Source: Anolis carolinensis
Lineage: Eukaryota
Direction: 5' to 3'
Assembly: GCF_035594765.1 (NCBI RefSeq)
Contig: NC_085843.1
Span: 116,909,971-116,973,970, forward strand
Length of the DNA stretch: 64,000 nucleotides
Under the pieces are notes generated by a model. It saw nothing but the letters and a program-made list of their open reading frames with translations. It made no database searches and had not been told where the DNA came from. This document shows positions 7,924 through 40,909 of this stretch, piece by piece (the first letter of the stretch is position 1; each line of letters opens with the position of its first letter). Made by a program: the position numbers and the translations under genes.

Positions 7924-9962
7924 CTTCTCCAGCTTCCAGCTTCCTGAGGGGATGCTCGATTCCGGCTACAAGGGGACCAGCTGCTTCATCATCCACTCTG
8001 AAGCCGACTTCCTCATTCCGTTCCACAGGCTGGTGGCAGTTTTATGGTGTCGTAAATTTAGTTAAATTAGCCTCCCCACATAGTGGTACCTAAATTTCCT
8101 ACTTGATAGATGCAACTATCTTTCAGGTTGCTTAGGTCAACAATGAGCAGGGGCTATATTTTATTTTAATTGTCGGGTGCTCATTCCGACATGAGCTGGC
8201 CTCGAACTAATGACCTCTTGATCATAGTGATTTATTGCAGCTGGCTACTAACCAGCCTGCACCACATCATCTGCATTATTGCAACTAGAATTAATTGTTC
8301 CCCCTTCTTTCTTACTTAACTGGCCTAAAAGTTAATTTATGTTGCAATAAGGATAAGAACGCATGAGGGATACAAATCAAATCAAATAAACAGATTGTCC
8401 ATTTGATCATGTCATTGAGTTTATTGTTGCAACCTCAAATGAAAGAATGTGCCTGTCATTGTATATCCTTTCTAAAATGTTTGTTTTGTGGATTGCACTA
8501 TGATGCAATAATATTGTGTCGTAATGAATGCAAAGCCTAAGAAATAATGCTAAAATAATATTGCAAGAAATTTATGTGTATTGGTCCCATGTAATATGTA
8601 GAATAGGAATAATGTGACTAGAAACAGAGTCGGAACAGCAGCGTGGGCTTGATTCAGCTTTGATCTTGATATGCCAAGGAAAATATCAATTGAATAGAAG
8701 TTTATCAAGAAAAGAACTTAGAAGAAAAACAGTGGAAAAAGAACATGTAGACACCTAGATACAATATATCTGTAATGAAAGCTCAATTGATTTCATTGTT
8801 GTTCTCTCTGTGATTTTAATACATGGGGAGTTGAGTCACAAGACCTCATAGCATCTTCACCAGGCAAGAGTTCTCATGATACTTTGGTAAAAAATCATTG
8901 CTGTTAAATGGTTAAAAGAATAATATGCATTTATAGTATTATTTTGACCTGTGGGAGCTTAAGCAGAACAAAAACAAATGGACTTCTTTGCTGACAATGT
9001 CTACTTGCTGCTTTCTTCTGTGATACTGATCTTCAAATTGTCTTTCTGTTCAGATAAGAAAGTTTCACTGGTTGATGAGACTCAAAACAGGCTTCCATGG
9101 TAAGTGATCAAATATGCTTATGTTTTAAAACCTACTGCAACGCACAAGGATTAGAAAAAAGCCAGGCTACTTTAAAAGTCAACAATCCTTCTGTTTAATC
9201 GCATGCATGAAATTGCATTTCTTAATCTACTGGAGAATCAAATGGCCTCTTCTGTCTCCTTGCATGCTTATGCTCACATGCTTTTCTGTAACATATGGGA
9301 GGTACATGGTCAGGATATTAAACCTTTGAAGAGCGCTGCTAAATACACAGAAACAAAGGAATTTCTTGCATATTGCTGAAATGCAACTTCCTAAATAGTA
9401 CAAAGAAGCTTTGTATTTCAGAGGTCAGATGCCAGAATATAGTGCATCATTCTGCTTGCAGCTACTTCCTGTCAGTAGCTGATAACGCACCCATTGATTT
9501 TATTTCCTCAGAAACAATTTACTTGCAGGAGGATGCTAATTTTTGCAGAAGACAGCTCCTTGGAGTTTTGTTGGTAGGAAAGTGCTGATGAACTGTGTGT
9601 TCTGTTGTTAGCATGAATTTAGACAAAGAAATAGGTGCTTTTCTACTTCTGATGAATACAGTTTAATTCTCATCCCTTTGTTTATTTCAATTTTAGCTCC
9701 TATCTTTGCTCCTAGAGGAAAGAGCATCCAAAATTGATCAAACCTACACGTTGTTTCATATCACCTGAAACTTGTATAATCATGCCAAACTTTATTAATA
9801 AGCACATCTAAGTTTGTGGAACTGATTTTTTTAAAAAAATCAAAGTATCACACAAACAAGGTTAACTCAGGAATTGCAAGTGTGCAGCAGGAAATGTATG
9901 AAACAATAATAAAAGGCTTCTAAATATGTATTAACTAATACTGAAGCTCTATACAGTGAGAG

Positions 9963-10232
9963 GTCCCAGGTTCAATCCCCGGGAGCGGCGTGAGCGGCCG
10001 CTGTTAGCTCCAGCTCCTGCCAACCTAGCAGTTCGAAAACATGCCGATGTGAGTAGATCAATAGGTACCGCTCCAGCAGGAAGGTAACGGCACTCCATGC
10101 AGTCATGCCGGCCACATGACCTTGGAGATGTCTACGGACAACCCCGTCTCTTCAGCTTAGAAATGGAGATGAGCACCAACCCCCAGAGTCAGACATGACT
10201 GGACTTAATGTCAGGGGAAAACCTTTACGTAC
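9963..10232 (+). mobile_element. Sauria SINE, 5'-truncated
   Basis: Diagnostic GAGTAGATCAATAGGTACCGC...CCCAGAGTCAGACATGACTGG...ACCTTT; 14-bp TSD CTATACAGTGAGAG at 9949-9962 and 10233-10246. Confidence 0.9.
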
Positions 10233-10253
10233 CTATACAGTGAGAGACTATGT

Positions 10254-10841
10254 GTTGTAGTTGTGCCAAGGGGCAGTTCTGGCACTACTGGTAAAATTGC
10301 TAGTAGGAGGAAAAGGGATAATGTTGAGCAGGTGTTTGATGAGGAACAGCAAGTAAAACGGGTTCGGGAAATACTTATGGCTCCTACTGAGGATGAAACG
10401 TTTGAAGGCTTCTCTAGTGAAGAGGACTCAATGCTGGAAGATGATGGGTTAACAGAAAGTAGAGGTCAACTCAGGAGCAAGAGTCAGATGAGGAAAGGGA
10501 AAGAAAGAAGGGAAAGAAAGGGAAAAAAGATTCCGGATATAATTACTGCTCCCATGGAAGATGAAACATTTGAGGGTTTTTCTGGGGATGATGGGTCTGA
10601 GAGTGGGATGGAAGAGGCTGCAGCTTGGACTCAAGTAAATGTGTGTGCAGCACCAGTTTCTGAGGGTGCATCAGAAGACTGGCATACTACTGGTACACCA
10701 GGGGCATGGGGAGATCTAAGTCTTGAACAAAGATGGAGTGATTGGAGGGCTGGTAGGCGAGGTTCACATATGAGATTGAGATCAGCTGTGGATAATGATG
10801 ACAGGGCGGAGGCCTCATCATCATCGGACTCCGAAGTGTAA
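10254..10841 (+). CDS. U3-encoded acidic polypeptide (195 aa) with two EDETFEGF motifs and MRLRSA
   Basis: Open from LTR base 2; homologous to the U3 frame at 42978-43394; the duplicated motif differs only at silent sites. Confidence 0.6.
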   Translation, partial: VVVVPRGSSGTTGKIASRRKRDNVEQVFDEEQQVKRVREILMAPTEDETFEGFSSEEDSMLEDDGLTESRGQLRSKSQMRKGKERRERKGKKIPDIITAPMEDETFEGFSGDDGSESGMEEAAAWTQVNVCAAPVSEGASEDWHTTGTPGAWGDLSLEQRWSDWRAGRRGSHMRLRSAVDNDDRAEASSSSDSEV

Positions 10842-10954
10842 GTTAAAAGTGGAGTTGAAAGTGAAGGTCCCTTGCAGAAGGCAAGGTGTCGTTTTTGGGA
10901 CATTGCTTTGTCGCTGCCTGTTCTCCTTGGGTCCTGGCTGTACAGCTTTGTTTT

Positions 10955-11390
10955 CCTGAATCCGGATTGACTCCTGATGACAGCATTCGTTTCTGCTTTG
11001 GCGTTCCTGACTTGGCATTTCTGGCTTGGCATTCCTGGCTTCCTCTGGCTCCTGGATCCAGTTTGACTCCTGATGGCAGCGTTCATTTCTGCTCTGACGT
11101 TCCTGACTTGGCGTTTCTGGCTTGGCGTTCCTGGCTTCATCTGGCTCCTGAATCCAGTTTGGCTCTTGATGGCAGCATTTGCTCCTGGCTTGGCAATTCC
11201 GACTTGGCATTTTTGGTTTGGCGTTTCTGGCTTCCACTGGCTACTGAATCCGGTCTGCTTCCTGACGACGGCAGCGTTTGCTTCTGACTTGGCGTTTCTG
11301 GCTCCTCTTTGGCTTCTGAATCTGGTCTGCTTCCTCATGACGACATTGCTTGCTCCTGGCTTGGCGATTTTGGGTCCCCTTTTGGCTTTT
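10955..11390 (+). repeat. 96-bp tandem repeat (about 4.5 copies) inside the LTR, downstream of the TATA box
   Basis: Unit starts (C)CTGAATCC recur at 10955, 11051, 11147 and 11243, then at 11315 after a 72-bp unit. Confidence 0.85.
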
Positions 11391-12402
11391 GACAACAGTA
11401 TCGTTTGCACTCATTATTTGAGAGCGTTTGGCTCTTCCCTGACTCTCTGCGCTACAGCATAGCATGGCGCTTGTTCCAGTGAACGTTTTGGTTGCATTTG
11501 AACCGGATTATCAAGCTAGATAATCCAGGTTATTTTTTTGTTCTTGCTTGGTGCCTTTTCTTGAAGCAAAGACGTTTACTTTTGGTTGAAACACTGAAGT
11601 TAAGTGTTTCTGAGTTCAAAATATCATTTAATAAACATTTGTTAACTTTACTTATTGTGTGTGGCTCTTTAAGAGGGGTCTGTATCATGACACTATGTTT
11701 GAGCATAACAATGGGAAGCATCTACTAAAAATGTGTAGGATTGCCTGGTCCCATTTGGTAGTGACATATTCATTGATCATACCATCCAGGGTACCTGTTT
11801 TTTTCTGATGGCCTTCACATCCATGGACAGGAACTAGTCTCCCTCCACCTTAGAGCAGTACCTATATATACCCATAAAACCTCCTTCAGATTGATATAAT
11901 GTGTATGTATATTGATACTAATATATGTATAACTTGAGCAGGTGTGGCTGGCATGCACACTGTCATTTTAGAGATTGAGCCATTATGTACTTTATTGTAT
12001 TTGTATTCAATAGAAGAATAAGGCTTGAGAAATAATTTGATCCTATTCATCAGTAGGAGCATAGTGTCAAGACTGAAGGAAGTCATAGTCTCACTCTATT
12101 CTGCTTTGGTCAGATCTCACCTGGAATACTGTGTCAAATCCTGGGCACCAGAATTCAAGGAGGATATTCACAAGCTGGAAAGTGTCCAGAGATGGATGAT
12201 CAAAATGATCAAAGGTCTGGAAGCCAAGCCCTGTGAGGAATGGCTTAGGGAACTGAGTATGTTTAGCTTGAAGAGGAGAAGGCTGAGAGGGGACATGATA
12301 GCCATGTTAAAATATTTGAAAGGATGCAGGGCCGGTCCAACAATGGAGGCCGTTTAAGCGGCCGCTTCGGGCGCACGTCAAGGGGGGCGCTGTTGAGGCT
12401 CC

Positions 12403-13570
12403 CTCTCGCACTCCTCGGCCCACTCGCACATCTCTCGCACTCGGCCCACTCGCGGCCCTCTCGCACTCGGCTCAATCGCGCCCCTCTCGCACTCGGCCCA
12501 CTCACGCCTCTCTCACACTCGGCCCACTCACGCATCTCTCTCACTCGGCCCACTCGCGCCCCTCTCGCACTCGGCCCACTCACGCATCTCTCTCACTCGG
12601 CCCACTCACGCCCCTCTCGCACTCGGCCCACTCACGCATCTCTCTCACTCGGCCCACTCATGCATCTCTCTCACTCGGCCCACTCACGCCCCTCTCGCAC
12701 TCGGCCCACTCGCACCTCTCTCTCACTCGGCCCACTCGCGCCTCTCTCTCACTCGGCCCACTCACACCCCTCTCGCACTCGGCCCACTCACGCCTCTCTC
12801 TCACTCGTCCCACTCACGCCCCTCTCGCACTCAGCCCACTCACGCCTCTCTCGCACTCGGCCCACTCGCGCCTCTCTCTCACTCGGCCTACTCGCGCCTC
12901 TCTCTCACTCAGCCCACTCACTCCCCTCTCGCACTCGGCCCACTCACGCATCTCTCTCACTCGGCCCACTCATGCCCCTCTCGCACTCGGCCCACTCACG
13001 CCTCTCTCGCACTCGGCCCACTCACGCCCCTCTCGCACTCGGCCCACTCACGCATCTCTCTCACTCGGCCCACTCACGCCCCTCTCGCACTCGGCCCACT
13101 TGCGCCTCTCTCTCACTCGTCCCACTCATGCCCCTCTCGCACTCGGCCCACTCACGCCTCTCTCGCACTCGGCCAACTCGCGCCTCTCTCTCACTCGGCC
13201 TACTCGCGCCTCTCTCTCACTCGGCCCACTCACTCCCCTCTCGCACTCGTCCCACTTGCGCCTCTCTCTCACTCGTCCCACTCACGCCCCTCTTGCACTC
13301 GGCCCACTCACACCTCTCTCGCACTCGGCCCACTCACGCCCCTCTCGCACTCGGCCCACTCACGCCTCTCTCTCACTCGGCCTACTCGCGCCTCTCTCTC
13401 ACTCGGCCCACTCACTCCCCTCTCGCACTCGGCCCACTCACGCATCTCTCTCACTCGGCCCACTCACGCCCCTCTCGCACTCGGCCCACTCACGCCTCTC
13501 TCGCACTCGGCCCACTCACGCCCCTCTCGCATTCGGCCCACTCACGCATCTCTCTCACTCGGCCCTCTCG
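12403..13570. repeat. 26-bp C-rich minisatellite, about 44 copies
   Basis: Unit approximately ACTCGGCCCACTC(A/G)CGC(C/A)(C/T)CTCTC(G/T)C. Confidence 0.95.
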
Positions 13571-13950
13571 CCCTTGCAGCCCTCTTGCCCCTGAACAAGA
13601 CCTGAGGCCAGGCCTCTGGGCCTGCTGCTCCACCTGCACCCTTCCTGGATTCCTCCCGCAATGCCCGGCAGCCCTCCGTGGCTGGAAGGAGCTCTGGCAG
13701 GTCGAGCAGGCCTGTGCCCCTGCCATGCACCTCCTTGGGGACCCTCTCAGCCATGAAGACGGGGCAGGTAGGAACCCGTCCCTGTTCCCAGCATTTCGCC
13801 AGGCATGTCTCCAGGGCAGGCCTGGGCCAACTTGGCAACTGAGGGGGGAAAAGGGGCCTGAGGCTGGGTTGCTGCAGGTTTTTCAGCTGCCTGGCCATGT
13901 TCCAGATGCTGGAACATGTGGGCCTACTCCTAGGATTTATAGTTTCCTAA

Positions 13951-14378
13951 GGCCCCTTCTTCACAGCCATAGAAGACAGATTATCAAGGCAGATAATCCA
14001 CATTTTCTGCTTTGAACCAGATTATATGCATCCACACAGCCATATAATCCAGTTCAGAGCAGATAGTCTGGATTTTATATGGCAGGGTATGGGTTCTTCT
14101 ACATAACCATATAATTGAGATTATGAAGGCAGATAATCCAGGTCATATGCACTGAACCGGATTATATGCATCTACACAGCCATATAATCCAGTTCAGAGC
14201 AGATAGTCTGGATCTTATATGGCAGGGTATGGGTTCTTCTACATAACCATATAATTCAGATTATCAACGCAGATAATCCACATTATCTGCCTTGAACTGG
14301 GTTATCTGAGTCTACACTGCCATATAATCCAGTTCAAAGCAGATAACCTGCATTTTATATGGCAATACAGAAAGGGCC
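13951..14378. mobile_element. PIF/Harbinger-type MITE with an internal 120-bp tandem duplication
   Basis: GGCCCCTTCT...AGAAAGGGCC flanked by TAA; repeated GCAGATAATCC/GGATTAT motifs. Confidence 0.7.
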
Positions 14379-15597: not shown

Positions 15598-15686
15598 ATT
15601 CATACCATATGGAGAGGGGCAGATTTCTCGCCCTTTTCATGATATTGTTTAAACTTCCACTCTATGTCTAATTTTTGTTTTGTGTA

Positions 15687-16018
15687 AGGTAAAGGTAAAG
15701 GTTTCCCATGACGTTAAGTCCAGTCATGTCTGACTCTGGGGGTTGGTGCTCATCTCCATTTCTAAGCCAAAGAGCCAGTGTTGTCCGTAGACACCTCCAA
15801 GGTCATGTGGCCAGCATGACTGCATGGAGCACCGTTACCTTCCCGCCGGAAGTTGTACCTATTGATCTACTCACATTGGCATGTTTTCGAACTACTAGGT
15901 TGGCAAAAGCTGGAGCTAACAGCGGGCGCTCATTTCGCTCCCGGGATTTGAACCTGGGACCTTTCGGTCTGCAAGTTCAGCAGCTCAGTGCTTTAACACA
16001 CTTCGCTACCAGGGCTCC
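15687..16018 (-). mobile_element. Full-length Sauria SINE
   Basis: (AAAGGT)n tail on the plus strand, GGAGCCC head; 15-bp TSD TTTTTGTTTTGTGTA. Confidence 0.92.
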
Positions 16019-16152
16019 TTTTTGTTTTGTGTATTTTATGGAAATATGTTTCCATATGTATATTTTACGGAGTGTTTTTAAATTATTATGTGTTCTAGCA
16101 ATGTTGTCAACCGTCTTGAGCGGGTAAGAAATAAAATTATCATTATCATTAT

Positions 16153-18424: not shown

Positions 18425-18426
<2 letters not shown>

Positions 18427-18582
18427 GTAAAGGTAAAGGTATCCCTTGACATTAAGTTCAGTCATGTCTGACTCTGGGGGTTGGTGCTCATCTCCATTTC
18501 TAAGCCCAAGAGCCAGTGTTGTCCATAGACACCTCCAAGGTCATGTGGCCGGCATGACTACATGGAGTGCCATTACCTTCCC
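18425..18582 (-). mobile_element. Sauria SINE 3' part next to (GT)n, inside the hAT
   Basis: AGGTAAAGGTAAAGGT tail and CATGTCTGACTCTGGGGGTTGG. Confidence 0.85.
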
Positions 18583-18948
18583 AGAAACACACAGAAAATG
18601 GGAATTCCAGACAGGAAACAATCAGGGCCAGCTAATACCTCCCAACAAAGGATTCCCCCAGGTAGGAAGCAGCCAGGCTTTGAAGCTGCAAGGCTATTCA
18701 ATGCTAATCAAGGTGACCAATTGCAACATTCACACTTGCCTCCCACAGACAAGAGTTCTTTCTCCCACCCTGGACCTTCCACAGATATATAAACCCCACT
18801 TGCCTAGCTTCGCACAGACGTCAAAACCTCTATGTCTGCCACAGATGTGGGTGAAATGTCAGGAGAGAATGCTTCTGGCACATGGCCATAGAGCCCGGAA
18901 TACATACCACAACAGTGTGATCCCGGCCATGAAAGCTTTCGACAACAC
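18583..18948 (+). mobile_element. Penelope-like fragment inside the hAT
   Basis: Reverse-complement match to 16153-16415; hammerhead CTGAGGA box disrupted by a deletion. Confidence 0.7.
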
Positions 18949-35517: not shown

Positions 35518-38500
35518 TTACATATCATCTGTCCAAAACCTCATTTCCTCTTGTGACGGTAACTTTCCTTCCTTGTTTTTTAAACCTTTTACAACAAATT
35601 TTCCCCACACAGCATCATAATCGCTTTGTTTCCATATACCTTTTTTAACCTTTAATATACATGTTAGTTTATCATTTATTGCTAATTTCCATGCTTCTTT
35701 ATACCACTCCTCTATTTGTATGTTCATTTCTTTTTTCCAATTCCTTGCTATAAGTAATCTTGCTATTGTTACTAGATTTGTTATCGCATCTTTCTCCTCC
35801 TTTTTCCATTGTTTATTATTATATAATGATAATAATGCTATGCTAGGACTTTTATCAATTTTCATATTCATTATATCTTCTATTTCTCTAAAAACTTTCC
35901 CCCAAAATTTGTTTACATATTTGCATTGCCACCACATGTGTATATAAGTTCCTGGTTCTTGGCACCCTCTCCAGCAATTTTTTGAATTATTTTTATTCAT
36001 ATATGCTATTCTTACTGGTGTCAGATACCACTTCCATATTAACTTGTAGTAATTTTCTTTAACCCGTATTGATAAATTTTTTAAGTGTCTTTGTCCCCAT
36101 AACTGTTGCCATTCTATTTCGCTTATTTTTATCCCTAAGTCTTCTTCCCAAGACTCCTTAAGGGTATTCTTATTTATTTTCCCCTCCTTCGTTTCGATTA
36201 ATATCTTATAAATTCTACTAATTATACCTCTCAAGTTTTCCTGTTCCTCTACAGCCCTTCCCTTCTGTATTGTTAGCTCAAATTGACTAAGTTGGCTTCC
36301 ATTTCTATTGTTTTTTTCCCAATTTTTAAACCATTGTTCTAATTGTATACAGTGGAACCATGTCAATTTTATTTCTTTAAACTCTTCCAACATCATTTCC
36401 TTCTTCATTCTCACCTTCAGCCAATCCTCTATCCTATCTAATTTATTCTCCCTTAATTTTTTATCCATTACTTTTTTTAAATTTTTAGGGAATTTTTTTT
36501 CCATCACTATTGGGGTTATGATTGACCCCTCCCCTATTAACTTCCTCCTATATTTATTCCACACTTCTAATATATTGCTCAACATTGGGTTTCTAATTTC
36601 CCTCATTTCTTTTTTAGTAAACTGTTTAAAAAATATATTCCAAATTTCATCCTCCACTTTTCCTGAATCATTACTAAGCCAATCTATTCCCTCTCTTTTA
36701 ACCATTCCTTCTATCACCCAGCTTAATCTGCTTGCTTCATAATATTTTTTAATATTAGGTAGTGCTAGTCCTCCCTCTTTTTGCGATCTATACCATAACT
36801 GTTTAGTTAATCTATTTCTTTTACTTCCATTACAATACTTGTTAATCATTTGTTGCCATCTGTTTAGTTCTTCTTCTGTGATTTGAAGTGGTAGCATTCT
36901 AAATATAAAATTTATCTTTGGAAGTATTTTCATTTTTACTAATGCTATTCTTCCAAACCAGGATAGGCGTATGTCTTCATATTCTATTAATTTTTTCTGA
37001 ACCTCTTTCCTTAATGTTACTACATTTAGTTCTTCCATTTTTTTTAAATCCTTTGTTATTAATATTCCTAAGTATTTTAATTCATTCTTAATTCTTATTC
37101 CCATTTTACTCTGCTCTATAAAATCTTTCTCTTCTTCCTTTGTATAATTTATTAACATCATTTCTGACTTATTCCAATTAACTTGTAATCCTGTCGTTTT
37201 CCCAAATATCTCCAAATGTTCTTTTATTTTGTCCATTTTCTCTATTATATTTTCTATAAATAGCAATGTATCGTCAGCAAATAAGCTCACCTTATGTTTC
37301 TCCTCTTTTCCTAGCCCCTCTAGATTCTTATCATTCCTTATACCGTTTGCAAACATTTCTATCACCATAGCAAATAATATCGGCGACAAAGGGCACCCTT
37401 GCCTCGTTCCTCTGGACACTTTTATTTCCTTAGTCACTCCATCATTTATAGTTATCTCTGCTGAATTCCTTGAATAAAATTGTTCTAAGATTCCTTTTAT
37501 TCTATTTCCCATTCCGAATTTATTCAGGATTTCCCTTAATGCCTCCCATTCCACACAATCAAACGCTTTAAAAATATCTAGTGATAATATCCCTGCTTTT
37601 TCCTTCCCCTCTTTAGCCAAATAAATTTTTTTTAGTACTCTCCCTATCAAATTTGACATTAGTCTTCCCTTCACAAACCCACACTGATCTTTTTTTATAT
37701 ACTTATACATGCATTTATTCATTCTATTAGCTATTATCGCAGACAGAATTTTTGCGTCCTGATTAACTAACGATATGGGCCTATATGACCCCGGGTCTGT
37801 TAAATCTTTATCAGGTTTGGGTATTAATATTATTAGTGATTTCCTCCATGATTCTGGTATTTTATCTCCCTCCATTATCCCATTATACATTTTTAATAAT
37901 TTTGGAGTTAAAACTTCTCTGAAGCTTTTATAATATTCTGTCCCTAGACCATCCAGGCCTGGAGCTTTCCCCACTTTTAATTTCTTAATAACTTCCTCTA
38001 TTTCTATCCTCTTAATGGGTTGTTCCAATAGCTCTTTATCCCTCTCCTCCAGCTTGCACTCCCAATTTTCCTCCACATATTTCCTAATTACTTCTATAGA
38101 GCTAGCTTTAGTTTGATATAATTCTTTATAAAATTCTTCAAATACCTTCAGTTTTTCTTTCATAGTTCTACATAATTTACCTGTTTTATCTTTTATCATA
38201 TTTATCATTCCTTCCATTTTCTTTTTTTGTGTTGATTTGGCTAGCATCTTGGAATTCCTATCACTAAACTCAAAGTATTCCCTCCTTAAATAAATTAAAT
38301 TCTCTTGTACTTCATCTATTTCCATTTTATCCAGTTCCTCTTTTTTTGCTCTCAGCCTTGCATAAGTTCGTATATCTCTCTTTATTACATATGTTTTTTC
38401 GATCTCTTCTATTTCTCTTTCTAAATTCCTTTTCCTTTCTTCTTGCCTTTTTTTTAGATTAATTGTCTCTTTTATGCATAACCCTCTAGTCACTGCTTTC

Positions 38501-39375
38501 ATGGTGTCCCATAGAACTCCTTTTGTCACCCCCTTTTCATTAAAGCCCCATATTTCTTGCCATTCTACTTGCATTCTGTCTACTATCTCTTTATAATTCA
38601 ATATTTTCGTATTTAACCTCCACCTCTTCATTTTGTCATAATCACATTTCAGCACCAACTCAATCGATACCAGAGCATGATCCGAAATCTTAATTATCCC
38701 AATATCAGCATTTAACACTTTACTTAACATATTTTTGGAGACAAAAATATAATCTATTCTTGTATACACCTTATGCACCGATGAATAATATGTATATCTG
38801 CTTTCATTCCCTTTTACCAATCTCCACACATCCTTCAGTTGCCATTTATTCATTACTCTACTTAAGTCCGTTATTTCGATATTTCTTGTTTTTGATGTTA
38901 ACATTGTTTTATCCTTCTTTGGGTCCATATAACAATTACAATCTCCTCCAAATATTACATTTTGTTGGTGATAATTCTCTATTTGCTCTAATACTTTTTC
39001 GTAAAATTCTTGCTGTTTAACATTTGGTGCATATACATTTACTAATACATATTTTTCTTCCCCTATTTCACCATATATTATTATGTATCTTCCCTCTTCA
39101 TCTTTCAATACCTTATTTATACCCAAATTGCATTTCTTTGCTATTATTATAGCTACACCTCTTGACTTTGATGACCCAAAAGATTTCTCATAATTCCTTA
39201 TCCAGCTCGACTTTAGTTCATTTGAGCCCAGTTTATTCTGATGCGTTTCCTGTAGGAAGATGACATCCGCCGCGTCCTTCTTCAGTAGGGCTTCAATCCG
39301 CCTTCTCTTAATTACCGTCCCCAACCCTCTCACATTAAGTGTTGAAATTCTTAATTTATGAGACATCATTTCCAT
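35518..39375 (-). CDS. L1 ORF2p (APE endonuclease, reverse transcriptase, CCHC motif), 1285 aa
   Basis: LNVRGL, LQETH, GGDCN, RIDY, SDH; KAPGLDG, YRPISL, KAFD, QGCPLSP, FADD; CWRGC...HMWWQC. Confidence 0.97.
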   Translation of the reverse strand: MEMMSHKLRISTLNVRGLGTVIKRRRIEALLKKDAADVIFLQETHQNKLGSNELKSSWIRNYEKSFGSSKSRGVAIIIAKKCNLGINKVLKDEEGRYIIIYGEIGEEKYVLVNVYAPNVKQQEFYEKVLEQIENYHQQNVIFGGDCNCYMDPKKDKTMLTSKTRNIEITDLSRVMNKWQLKDVWRLVKGNESRYTYYSSVHKVYTRIDYIFVSKNMLSKVLNADIGIIKISDHALVSIELVLKCDYDKMKRWRLNTKILNYKEIVDRMQVEWQEIWGFNEKGVTKGVLWDTMKAVTRGLCIKETINLKKRQEERKRNLEREIEEIEKTYVIKRDIRTYARLRAKKEELDKMEIDEVQENLIYLRREYFEFSDRNSKMLAKSTQKKKMEGMINMIKDKTGKLCRTMKEKLKVFEEFYKELYQTKASSIEVIRKYVEENWECKLEERDKELLEQPIKRIEIEEVIKKLKVGKAPGLDGLGTEYYKSFREVLTPKLLKMYNGIMEGDKIPESWRKSLIILIPKPDKDLTDPGSYRPISLVNQDAKILSAIIANRMNKCMYKYIKKDQCGFVKGRLMSNLIGRVLKKIYLAKEGKEKAGILSLDIFKAFDCVEWEALREILNKFGMGNRIKGILEQFYSRNSAEITINDGVTKEIKVSRGTRQGCPLSPILFAMVIEMFANGIRNDKNLEGLGKEEKHKVSLFADDTLLFIENIIEKMDKIKEHLEIFGKTTGLQVNWNKSEMMLINYTKEEEKDFIEQSKMGIRIKNELKYLGILITKDLKKMEELNVVTLRKEVQKKLIEYEDIRLSWFGRIALVKMKILPKINFIFRMLPLQITEEELNRWQQMINKYCNGSKRNRLTKQLWYRSQKEGGLALPNIKKYYEASRLSWVIEGMVKREGIDWLSNDSGKVEDEIWNIFFKQFTKKEMREIRNPMLSNILEVWNKYRRKLIGEGSIITPIVMEKKFPKNLKKVMDKKLRENKLDRIEDWLKVRMKKEMMLEEFKEIKLTWFHCIQLEQWFKNWEKNNRNGSQLSQFELTIQKGRAVEEQENLRGIISRIYKILIETKEGKINKNTLKESWEEDLGIKISEIEWQQLWGQRHLKNLSIRVKENYYKLIWKWYLTPVRIAYMNKNNSKNCWRGCQEPGTYIHMWWQCKYVNKFWGKVFREIEDIMNMKIDKSPSIALLSLYNNKQWKKEEKDAITNLVTIARLLIARNWKKEMNIQIEEWYKEAWKLAINDKLTCILKVKKGIWKQSDYDAVWGKFVVKGLKNKEGKLPSQEEMRFWTDDM

Positions 39376-39661
39376 TTCCCTTTAAAAGCTTTTTTGTGGC
39401 TTGAACCAATGTGAACCCTTGACCCTTACCCTCCCCTACCCTTGCCCACCCTTCCCCCCTCCTCCCCCTTGATCCCCCCCTTCCCTCATTCCCCCCTTCC
39501 TCCCCTTCCATTCTTCGGGACTCCTCGTCCCAATCATGGCCCCCGGCCTTCCCAATTGGGGAGGGGGAAGGCGAAGTCATCCCATGGCCCAGAGTCTCCC
39601 TCCCCCCGAGTGCTCATTTTAAATTCAATAATAAATTTAATTGCAGTGTTACGCTTTCTTC

Positions 39662-40909
39662 TTACATCCCGATTCCTCCAGTGGCGCCAAATAATTCCTC
39701 CGTTACTCCTGCTTCCGAACCCTTCTCCTCCTCCTCCTTTCGATCTCTCTCTTGTTTTCTTATTATACCGAGCTCCTCCAATAGTTGATGTCCTTGCTCC
39801 AATGAGTCTATTCTATATCTCTTGCCTTTCCATTGGAATTTGAGAAAGATAGGATATCCCCAAGTGTACAAAATTCCGGCCTTCATTAATTGGATCGTAA
39901 TAGGCTTCATTGAATATCTCCAATTCTTAGTTTCAGTACAATAGTCATTGAATATCTCCAATTTTGAGTCGCCCATCTTTAAATATTCTGGGTTCTTCTT
40001 TAATATTTTCATCAAATTTTCTTTCTTTACGAAGTTTTGAAATCGGATTATTATATTCCTAGGAATTATTTTATTTCTTCCACTCGGAAGGCGATGAACT
40101 CTCTCGATATCTAATTCTGACCAGTTTAATATCGGCGTGATCTTTTGCAACCACTTCAAAATCTCGGTTTTCAGATCTTCTTTCTTATTCCCTTCTGGGT
40201 AGTTTCTAATTATTGCGTTGTTTCTTCTTTGATTATCTTGCATATACACGAACTTTCTTTCCACATCTGAAAGCCTATTTTCATTTTTTTGCGTTTGTTG
40301 TTTGAGTACAAGTTGTTCCTGTTTATTTTTCCCGATTTCAGATTTATTTGTTTGTATCTCTCCATGTGCTGTTTTCAAACTTTCTCTTATTGTCTGAAAT
40401 TTTTCATCTGAGCTTTTCCTTTCTGCCTCCAATTGTGCTTTTATTTCTTTGTTGCTGGTCAGAATTTCTTGCTTCAAAACCTGGATCTCGCTCTTCCTCA
40501 TTTCTCTTTCTTTATCAAACATCAAATTCAAATTCAAATTCATTTCCTTTGTTTGTCTTTCACTCTCCTCTTTGATCAATTCCGCTATTTTATTTAACAA
40601 TTGGCCACTGCCCATTTCATTCCCCATTTCTTTCCTCTCTCTGCTCTCACTGCTTCCTTTTAGTTCTGCTGATAAACATGGCAGAGAGGTAGAAATGCCT
40701 CCTCCTCCTATTGCCCCCTCCGCTTGAGGGGGGGTCCGTTTTAATTGTTTCCCCTCCTTAATTGAGGTGGGGGGACTTCTTTTAACAATGCTCATTTCCT
40801 TGGGGATCTGAGAAACCCTTTCCAATCTAGAAAAAGATCTGTCCGAAGGCCTTGTGCGTGACCAAAGAGGATTTTTTGGGATATCCTGACTTTGTTTATT
40901 CCTTCTCAT
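39662..40909 (-). CDS. L1 ORF1p (coiled coil, RRM, CTD), up to 415 aa
   Basis: Coiled coil followed by RRNNAIIRNYPE, IERVHR, PRNIIIRF, IFNDY, WGYP. Confidence 0.93.
   Translation of the reverse strand: MRRNKQSQDIPKNPLWSRTRPSDRSFSRLERVSQIPKEMSIVKRSPPTSIKEGKQLKRTPPQAEGAIGGGGISTSLPCLSAELKGSSESRERKEMGNEMGSGQLLNKIAELIKEESERQTKEMNLNLNLMFDKEREMRKSEIQVLKQEILTSNKEIKAQLEAERKSSDEKFQTIRESLKTAHGEIQTNKSEIGKNKQEQLVLKQQTQKNENRLSDVERKFVYMQDNQRRNNAIIRNYPEGNKKEDLKTEILKWLQKITPILNWSELDIERVHRLPSGRNKIIPRNIIIRFQNFVKKENLMKILKKNPEYLKMGDSKLEIFNDYCTETKNWRYSMKPITIQLMKAGILYTWGYPIFLKFQWKGKRYRIDSLEQGHQLLEELGIIRKQERDRKEEEEKGSEAGVTEELFGATGGIGM

Follow-up and report, generated by a model that had tools for sequence, protein, structure and literature searches.

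A selected, LTR-encoded repeat at the integrase C-terminus of a lizard Gypsy element without a chromodomain likely mimics a host LEDGF/HRP2-binding motif

In the targeting domains of the Ty1 and Ty5 integrases, a short tail motif engages a host chromatin factor and steers integration, and we know of no MLV, Ty1 or Ty5 integrase tail that is encoded by the LTR or tandemly repeated. In MLV a short flexible motif of the integrase C-terminal tail engages the BET ET domain and steers integration (PMC8149907). In plant chromoviruses of CRM group A, a CR motif in the 3' LTR replaces the chromodomain (PMC3059260), an arrangement like that of the lizard tail described here. On the host side, the TIM is defined as a helix followed by an acidic linker of 8-16 residues and an optional FxGF; JPO2 and IWS1 carry several such motifs in series, like the tandem units of our element; FxGF is special to LEDGF and HRP2, all known partners of both having it; and the viral hijackers named in the available part of that source are lentiviral integrases only (PMC9987994). 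The PWWP domain of LEDGF/HRP2 reads H3K36me3 (PMC8149907). Here we describe, in a stretch of 64,000 nucleotides of the Anolis carolinensis genome (NC_085843.1, 116,909,971-116,973,970; hereafter the window), a selected repeat in the LTR-encoded integrase tail of a chromodomain-less Gypsy element, which likely mimics the host LEDGF/HRP2-binding motif and would serve to tether integration.

The element in the window is a solo LTR of 1440 bp (10253-11692, + strand; subfamily A of a chromodomain-less Ty3/Gypsy lineage), and its TG...CA ends and target-site duplication (5 bp; left copy CTATG, 10248-10252; right copy, 11693-11697; both +) are those of a Ty3/Gypsy element. Genome-wide, a first look gave 1218 LTR candidates, and the 40 that were scored had 89-92% identity. 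Thirty copies were fetched and both ends were found in 19, of which 17 have a target-site duplication with at most one mismatch and all 19 an AATAAA near the 3' end (in the window, this polyadenylation-signal-like hexamer lies at 11630-11635, +). From the second base of the LTR a frame of 195 codons plus stop runs open (10254-10841, +), and in 17 of the 30 copies the motif-bearing frame continues for 185 codons or more without a stop; its opening at the second base and its length in many copies suggested entry from outside the LTR. Directly after the stop, a TATA-like TTAAAA (10843-10848, +) stands in the identical place in subfamilies A and B and in a similar one in C; on this basis the tail-coding region would be U3, which would end here. 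The 3' half of the LTR holds 96-nt and 72-nt tandem repeats (10954-11381, +).

Elsewhere in the window, a SINE-like repeat (9957-10228) ends 25 bp before the LTR, with more SINE-like copies at 15663-16027, 18425-18583, 48755-49112 and 53434-54188; a GC-rich tandem array with a 26-nt period (43 overlapping matches of 300 nt), then 140-nt and ~153-nt arrays, occupies 12267-14015; and two open frames on the - strand (35518-39381, 1287 codons; 39662-40909, 415 codons) show strong strand skew and a LINE-like layout.

Re-translation agreed with the earlier note that the frame encodes the peptide EDETFEGFS twice (10389-10415 and 10557-10583), and a codon-by-codon comparison recovered five differences between the copies, all third-position, silent and transitions, together with the silent CCT/CCC difference in the proline upstream of each copy. 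The chance of all five changes falling on third positions was 0.0016 (combinatorial) or 0.00157 (simulation), a significance inflated by the choice of nine codons after the fact for their matching residues; 22 of the 23 flanking codons, also scored in the same ungapped register, differ mostly by replacement. Read in the two other + frames, the same five changes altered 6 of 10 and 7 of 10 residues, and in one antisense frame that shares third positions with the peptide frame they were again nearly silent (1 of 10 altered). The true repeat proved longer than the one first noticed: a 69-nt direct repeat (~23 codons) with 168-nt spacing and 72% identity. Its units, unit 1 (10356-10415, +; predicted helix KRVREIL) and unit 2 of the same design (10524-10583, +), each join a predicted helix, an acidic linker and FxGF in the manner of a TIM/IBD-binding motif; the counterpart of a third unit of subfamily B, without FxGF, follows at 10626-10673 (+). 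In the window copy, the inter-unit spacer departs from the reading of sister copies and the helix of unit 2 bears private changes. Family-wide, the G and last F codons differ between unit 1 and unit 2 in 29 of 30 copies, with residue changes in 5 and 3 of the 30 respectively.

This frame is the C-terminal tail of integrase, encoded in the LTR, a conclusion of which we are nearly certain. The genome was searched with internal sequence and nine loci were fetched: in four of them (L034, L035, L036 and L037) the integrase SH3/GPY-F region reads via the polypurine tract into the motif frame of the 3' LTR, and L038 has the same parts, broken. An exact search for the junction pattern gave 1 site. Moreover, three UniRef Pol proteins (P0001-P0003) terminate in the same tail, with one unit each, and in the young sister subfamily C an open Pol frame of ~1214 aa, including the unit, was found in most of 150 scored matches. 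The RT-RNaseH-integrase order and the polypurine tract before the 3' LTR are seen in related copies; the window holds the LTR alone. Another locus, L028, was rejected as a full-length copy, being interrupted by a nested chromodomain element.

That the selected product is instead a stand-alone LTR peptide (with an ATG at 10377), or an antisense protein sharing third positions with the tail, is very improbable. In-frame ATGs do exist, some NCBI gene models contain the tail, and the mirror antisense frame shows a dN/dS of 0.45 with only 1 stop column between subfamilies A and B; but selection extends upstream of the ATG, which is kept neither in unit 2 nor in subfamily C, the frame is continuous with Pol, solo copies decay neutrally, and the antisense ratio is low because the mirror frame inherits the third-position bias automatically. 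The claim that U3 is translated accordingly survives in altered form: the frame has been selected as the end of Pol/integrase in the 3' LTR, and the idea of a stand-alone LTR gene falls away. Pfam searches with the tail and with the antisense frame gave nothing above cut-off. An antisense stop-free run of 259 codons (10631-11410, -) lies over the LTR tandem repeats and probably results from the low A content of the repeat; across 19 copies, stop-free runs in the 3' half of the LTR span 90-220 codons antisense versus 75-205 sense. Three NCBI gene models (P0134, P0128 and P0131), including an isoform of 'opioid growth factor receptor-like 1', cluster with the tail or contain it, which suggests exonised or mis-annotated LTR tails.

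Integrase trees and domain searches bear on how this tail arose. Pfam found RT, RNase H, integrase and SH3 in Pol and no chromodomain (PF00385) in P0001, L034 or L041, whereas a chromodomain is present in P0005 and in the element nested in L031; among the matches listed, Pfam Chromo occurred in 99 of 120 relatives. An integrase tree of 40 rows united subfamilies A-D, which lack the chromodomain, in a single clade (100/100) next to squamate chromodomain elements, with weaker support at the deeper forks (82-92). The phylogeny places this clade within chromodomain-bearing elements, as for a chromovirus, yet the chromodomain that chromoviruses carry at the integrase C-terminus is absent from it; its loss in this clade is the simplest reading of the sequences. 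The tail sits at the integrase C-terminus, in the exact place of the relatives' chromodomain. Units number two in subfamily A, where FxGF is gone from the third, three in B and one in C, and D has a helix and acidic stretch without FxGF. Subfamily D belongs to the same clade, is young (LTR pairs 98-99% identical) and spreads without FxGF, which is thus dispensable for spread.

In the part of the tail that the LTR encodes, the subfamily D loci L039-L042 retain a basic helix together with a Ser-rich acidic stretch; another TND protein could recognise this as a helix-only motif. In the chromodomain family of L031 (3871-7680), Pol also reads via the polypurine tract ~100 codons into the LTR, and the Podarcis relative P0005 shows the same read-through; therefore read-through is likely older than the motif. 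The L031 chromodomain element sits inside a subfamily A element there, and inside a D element in L040.

As for distribution, the unit profile retrieved 7 matches among 1.84 billion 50%-identity representatives (3 named Anolis, 1 matching subfamily C and 3 unrelated look-alikes), with no credible relative outside Anolis, an absence that counts as weak evidence since the profile spans 34 positions and also missed the host's CDCA7L. In 98 relatives whose SH3 end could be recognised, FxGF came after it in four: the three Anolis proteins, and a fungal protein that matches by chance.

The tail peptide was under purifying selection in ancestral elements, most strongly in the units. Fixed differences between subfamilies A and B, scored per alignment column across 186 codons, gave a dN/dS of 0.49 (p 1e-4): 0.18 in unit 1, 0.17 in unit 2, and 0.51-0.95 in the rest of the tail (N-linker 0.95; the counterpart of the third unit 0.71, not significant), against 1.09 downstream of the stop. 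Of the other reading frames, which the earlier note had named as controls, the two on the + strand gave 1.67 and 1.83, as controls should. Furthermore, in 15 pairwise comparisons of six unit types, F, G and F were never replaced, and silent changes were common. The A-B ratios and the constancy of F, G and F thus bear out the proposal that the peptide, and not a DNA motif, was the target of selection.

That this pattern was made by an enhancer motif duplicated in the DNA, or by CpG decay, is hardly credible. The stretch does lie within the putative U3, and enhancer repeats are common in U3; against this, just one of the five EDETFEGFS codon changes touches a CpG, third positions between units are nearly saturated with first and second positions fixed, and the in-phase bias between A and B stops at the tail's stop codon, which refutes either process as sole cause and with it the CpG-decay alternative raised in the earlier note. 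A DNA role overlapping the peptide selection may exist alongside it.

Within subfamilies, the private substitutions of 30 subfamily A copies gave an omega of 1.19, with 8 nonsense changes, and those of 30 subfamily B copies an omega of 1.10, with nonsense changes present. The private changes of solo copies being neutral, the window copy is likely dead, an inactive remnant, and its U3 cannot be taken as itself a translated copy; for the same reason, the selection signal was inherited from active ancestors. With CpG sites dropped, variants common to at least three copies gave an omega of 0.80 in A (p 0.31) and 0.28 in B (p 0.001), the B loci having been picked by protein search with a possible bias to conservation, of which the singletons at 1.10 suggest little. 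Codon alignment over all copies, as first proposed, therefore needs separation by age: naive pooling mimics a refutation, and shared or fixed differences alone show selection.

What the selected unit resembles is the LEDGF-binding motif of human JPO2. Helix, 8-residue acidic linker and FxGF follow one another with the same spacing in both, and the linker, counted from the final hydrophobe of the helix to the first F, is acidic, carries Ser/Thr and lies within the 8-16 residues of a TIM. The residue pattern aligns with JPO2 M1, a helix with hydrophobic anchors is predicted, and conservation among the units is highest at the helix hydrophobics, at AP and at F, G and F. FxGF is invariant across all 15 aligned units, whose selection required it, and both FxGF units are intact in 21 of 30 copies selected by DNA. 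S/T-x-x-D/E sites are present in the units, and in the linkers we take them to be CK2 consensus sites.

In database searches, a profile of 15 units run against 177,635 PDB sequences returned as its best match 6EMO (LEDGF IBD-JPO2 M1; E 2e-5, ungapped), and 2MSR (a KMT2A peptide, the second IBD ligand) appeared at E 0.35 among eight unrelated weak matches. Searched alone, unit 1 of the window had JPO2 M1 of 6EMO as its sole PDB match (E 0.94), and two sister units, both picked for looking closest, reached it at E 0.0039 and 0.035; the 92-aa stretch containing both units had no PDB match at E 10. In the lizard itself, the two zf-4CXXC genes carry such motifs, and the CDCA7L-type motif is identical to two element units at 11 of 18 residues, with no gaps. 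At the DNA level, the element unit and the host exon share 29-37 of 54 nt, an identity that would fit capture from the host and convergence alike.

The host encodes IBD proteins; one further locus (L073, 1200-2050) holds a copy of the LEDGF (PSIP1) IBD region that lacks introns and contains stops, likely a processed pseudogene. The predicted complex of a lizard IBD with unit 1 of the window scored 0.46 versus 0.22 for the best control, a weak pass, and three prediction runs had at least 89% of contacts in common, with a partner pLDDT of 60-61. A pass at 0.60 or below was reached by only 5 of 78 solved complexes, and by all 4 passing mismatches; low passes are more often wrong than right unless the pairing is likely beforehand, and since a like complex is already solved, the prediction shows likeness only. 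That the unit would bind an IBD/TND domain we regard as likely.

Should the tail be selected but its likeness to JPO2 be a chance convergence, it would bind an unrelated partner or the element's own proteins. We consider this distinctly unlikely: the motif is short, acidic and of low complexity, has no relatives outside Anolis among the 50%-identity representatives and earned a weak complex score, but chance would have to account for an ungapped best match among all PDB sequences searched with the same 8-residue spacing, for the listing of a second IBD ligand, and for the coincidence of the motif's key positions (helix hydrophobics, AP, F, G, F) with the most conserved ones.

Assuming that the tail is a mimic of the LEDGF/HRP2-binding motif, the following sequence of events may be proposed: i) Pol, as seen above, runs through the polypurine tract into the 3' LTR, adding helix-acidic-FxGF units to integrase; ii) the unit would fold on the IBD/TND domain as JPO2's motif does; iii) linker serines and threonines could serve as CK2 sites, and tandem units could add avidity; iv) the tail, bound by LEDGF/HRP2, would hold the integration complex on H3K36me3-marked, transcribed chromatin, and the outcome would be biased integration. 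As a proxy for targeting, set beforehand, we compared strand skew over 9 kb of flank between two sets of 35 intact insertions, one of subfamily C and one of chromodomain elements, drawn from contigs C1 and C2 in the order of the list; in calibration, the strand skew of expressed genes was ~0.08-0.14. By this weak proxy, the flank skew correlation differed in the predicted direction but short of significance, at 0.62 for motif-bearing versus 0.33 for chromodomain copies (p 0.10-0.11; 0.19-0.24 after removal of five poorly covered loci with little unmasked DNA), and strongly skewed flanks numbered 15 of 35 versus 12 of 35; a strong HIV-like insertion bias was not visible at this number of loci. 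The window LTR's own flanks (0.015 and 0.031) show no skew.

The modest skew difference (p 0.10-0.24) also leaves room for a unit that binds the IBD or another TND protein (TFIIS, IWS1, ELOA, MED26 and others) in a role other than site choice, for instance access to chromatin, retention in the nucleus, stability of the protein, or competition with CDCA7/CDCA7L-linked silencing. For such a role speak subfamily D, which keeps only the helix and acidic stretch of a minimal TIM (PMC9987994), and the fly, where an FxGF protein owes its stability to its LEDGF-domain partner (PMC6877644); yet the tail stands exactly where relatives carry the chromodomain, and FxGF is described as LEDGF/HRP2-specific (PMC9987994), and we regard this alternative as rather unlikely. 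We favour tethering through LEDGF/HRP2 as somewhat more likely than not. Against it count the spread of subfamily D without FxGF, the loss of FxGF from the third unit in A, the skew result, the non-significant omega of shared A variants, and the shortness and acidity of a motif whose window copy, taken alone, matches JPO2 weakly. A bolder version, in which the lineage swapped its chromodomain for an LTR-encoded tandem mimic of the JPO2 motif and hijacks LEDGF/HRP2 as an independent origin outside lentiviruses, is put forward tentatively, as a possibility somewhat short of even.

Among known systems, the vertebrate Ty3/Gypsy chromovirus relatives, which we take to be the 'sushi-type', share with the lizard element gag, the PR-RT-RNaseH-IN order, the SH3/GPY-F region and a 5-bp target-site duplication, and Pol running into the LTR is also found in Anolis and Podarcis chromovirus relatives; they differ in having a chromodomain, where the lizard element has an acidic tail with 1-3 FxGF units. 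One genome thus offers young chromodomain, FxGF and helix-only families side by side, in which tail effects on insertion sites can be compared through annotation and population data, and, if our reading is true, natural zero-, one-, two- and three-FxGF variants. The identity of the tail also explains the open acidic frame in thousands of solo LTRs, sometimes annotated by gene predictors. The plant CR motif differs from the lizard tail in being centromere-linked, unrelated in sequence, of plant lineage and, in PMC3059260, without a known partner; the lizard tail belongs to a vertebrate lineage, and the prediction for it names a host partner and points to active chromatin, so that a non-chromodomain targeting tail now has a testable candidate partner. 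The MLV tail (PMC8149907), like those of Ty1 and Ty5, addresses another host domain and another target. Lentiviral integrase and LEDGF offer the same tether (IBD) and mark (H3K36me3) as predicted for the lizard tail, although HIV-1 integrase receives the IBD in a cleft between two protomers and does not engage it by a linear FxGF tail motif (PMC8149907). We found no earlier report of a LEDGF-type motif in a retrotransposon integrase among the titles and abstract openings searched. If the motif binds LEDGF/HRP2, lentiviruses would not be the sole retroelements to use the LEDGF tether, and a mobile element would be copying a host TND-interacting motif outright. Closest of all stands motif 1 of JPO2/CDCA7L (6EMO), like the unit in its helix, 8-residue acidic linker and FxGF at identical spacing, and different in that the element's motif, known here from sequence, follows a basic helix on the integrase of a mobile element.
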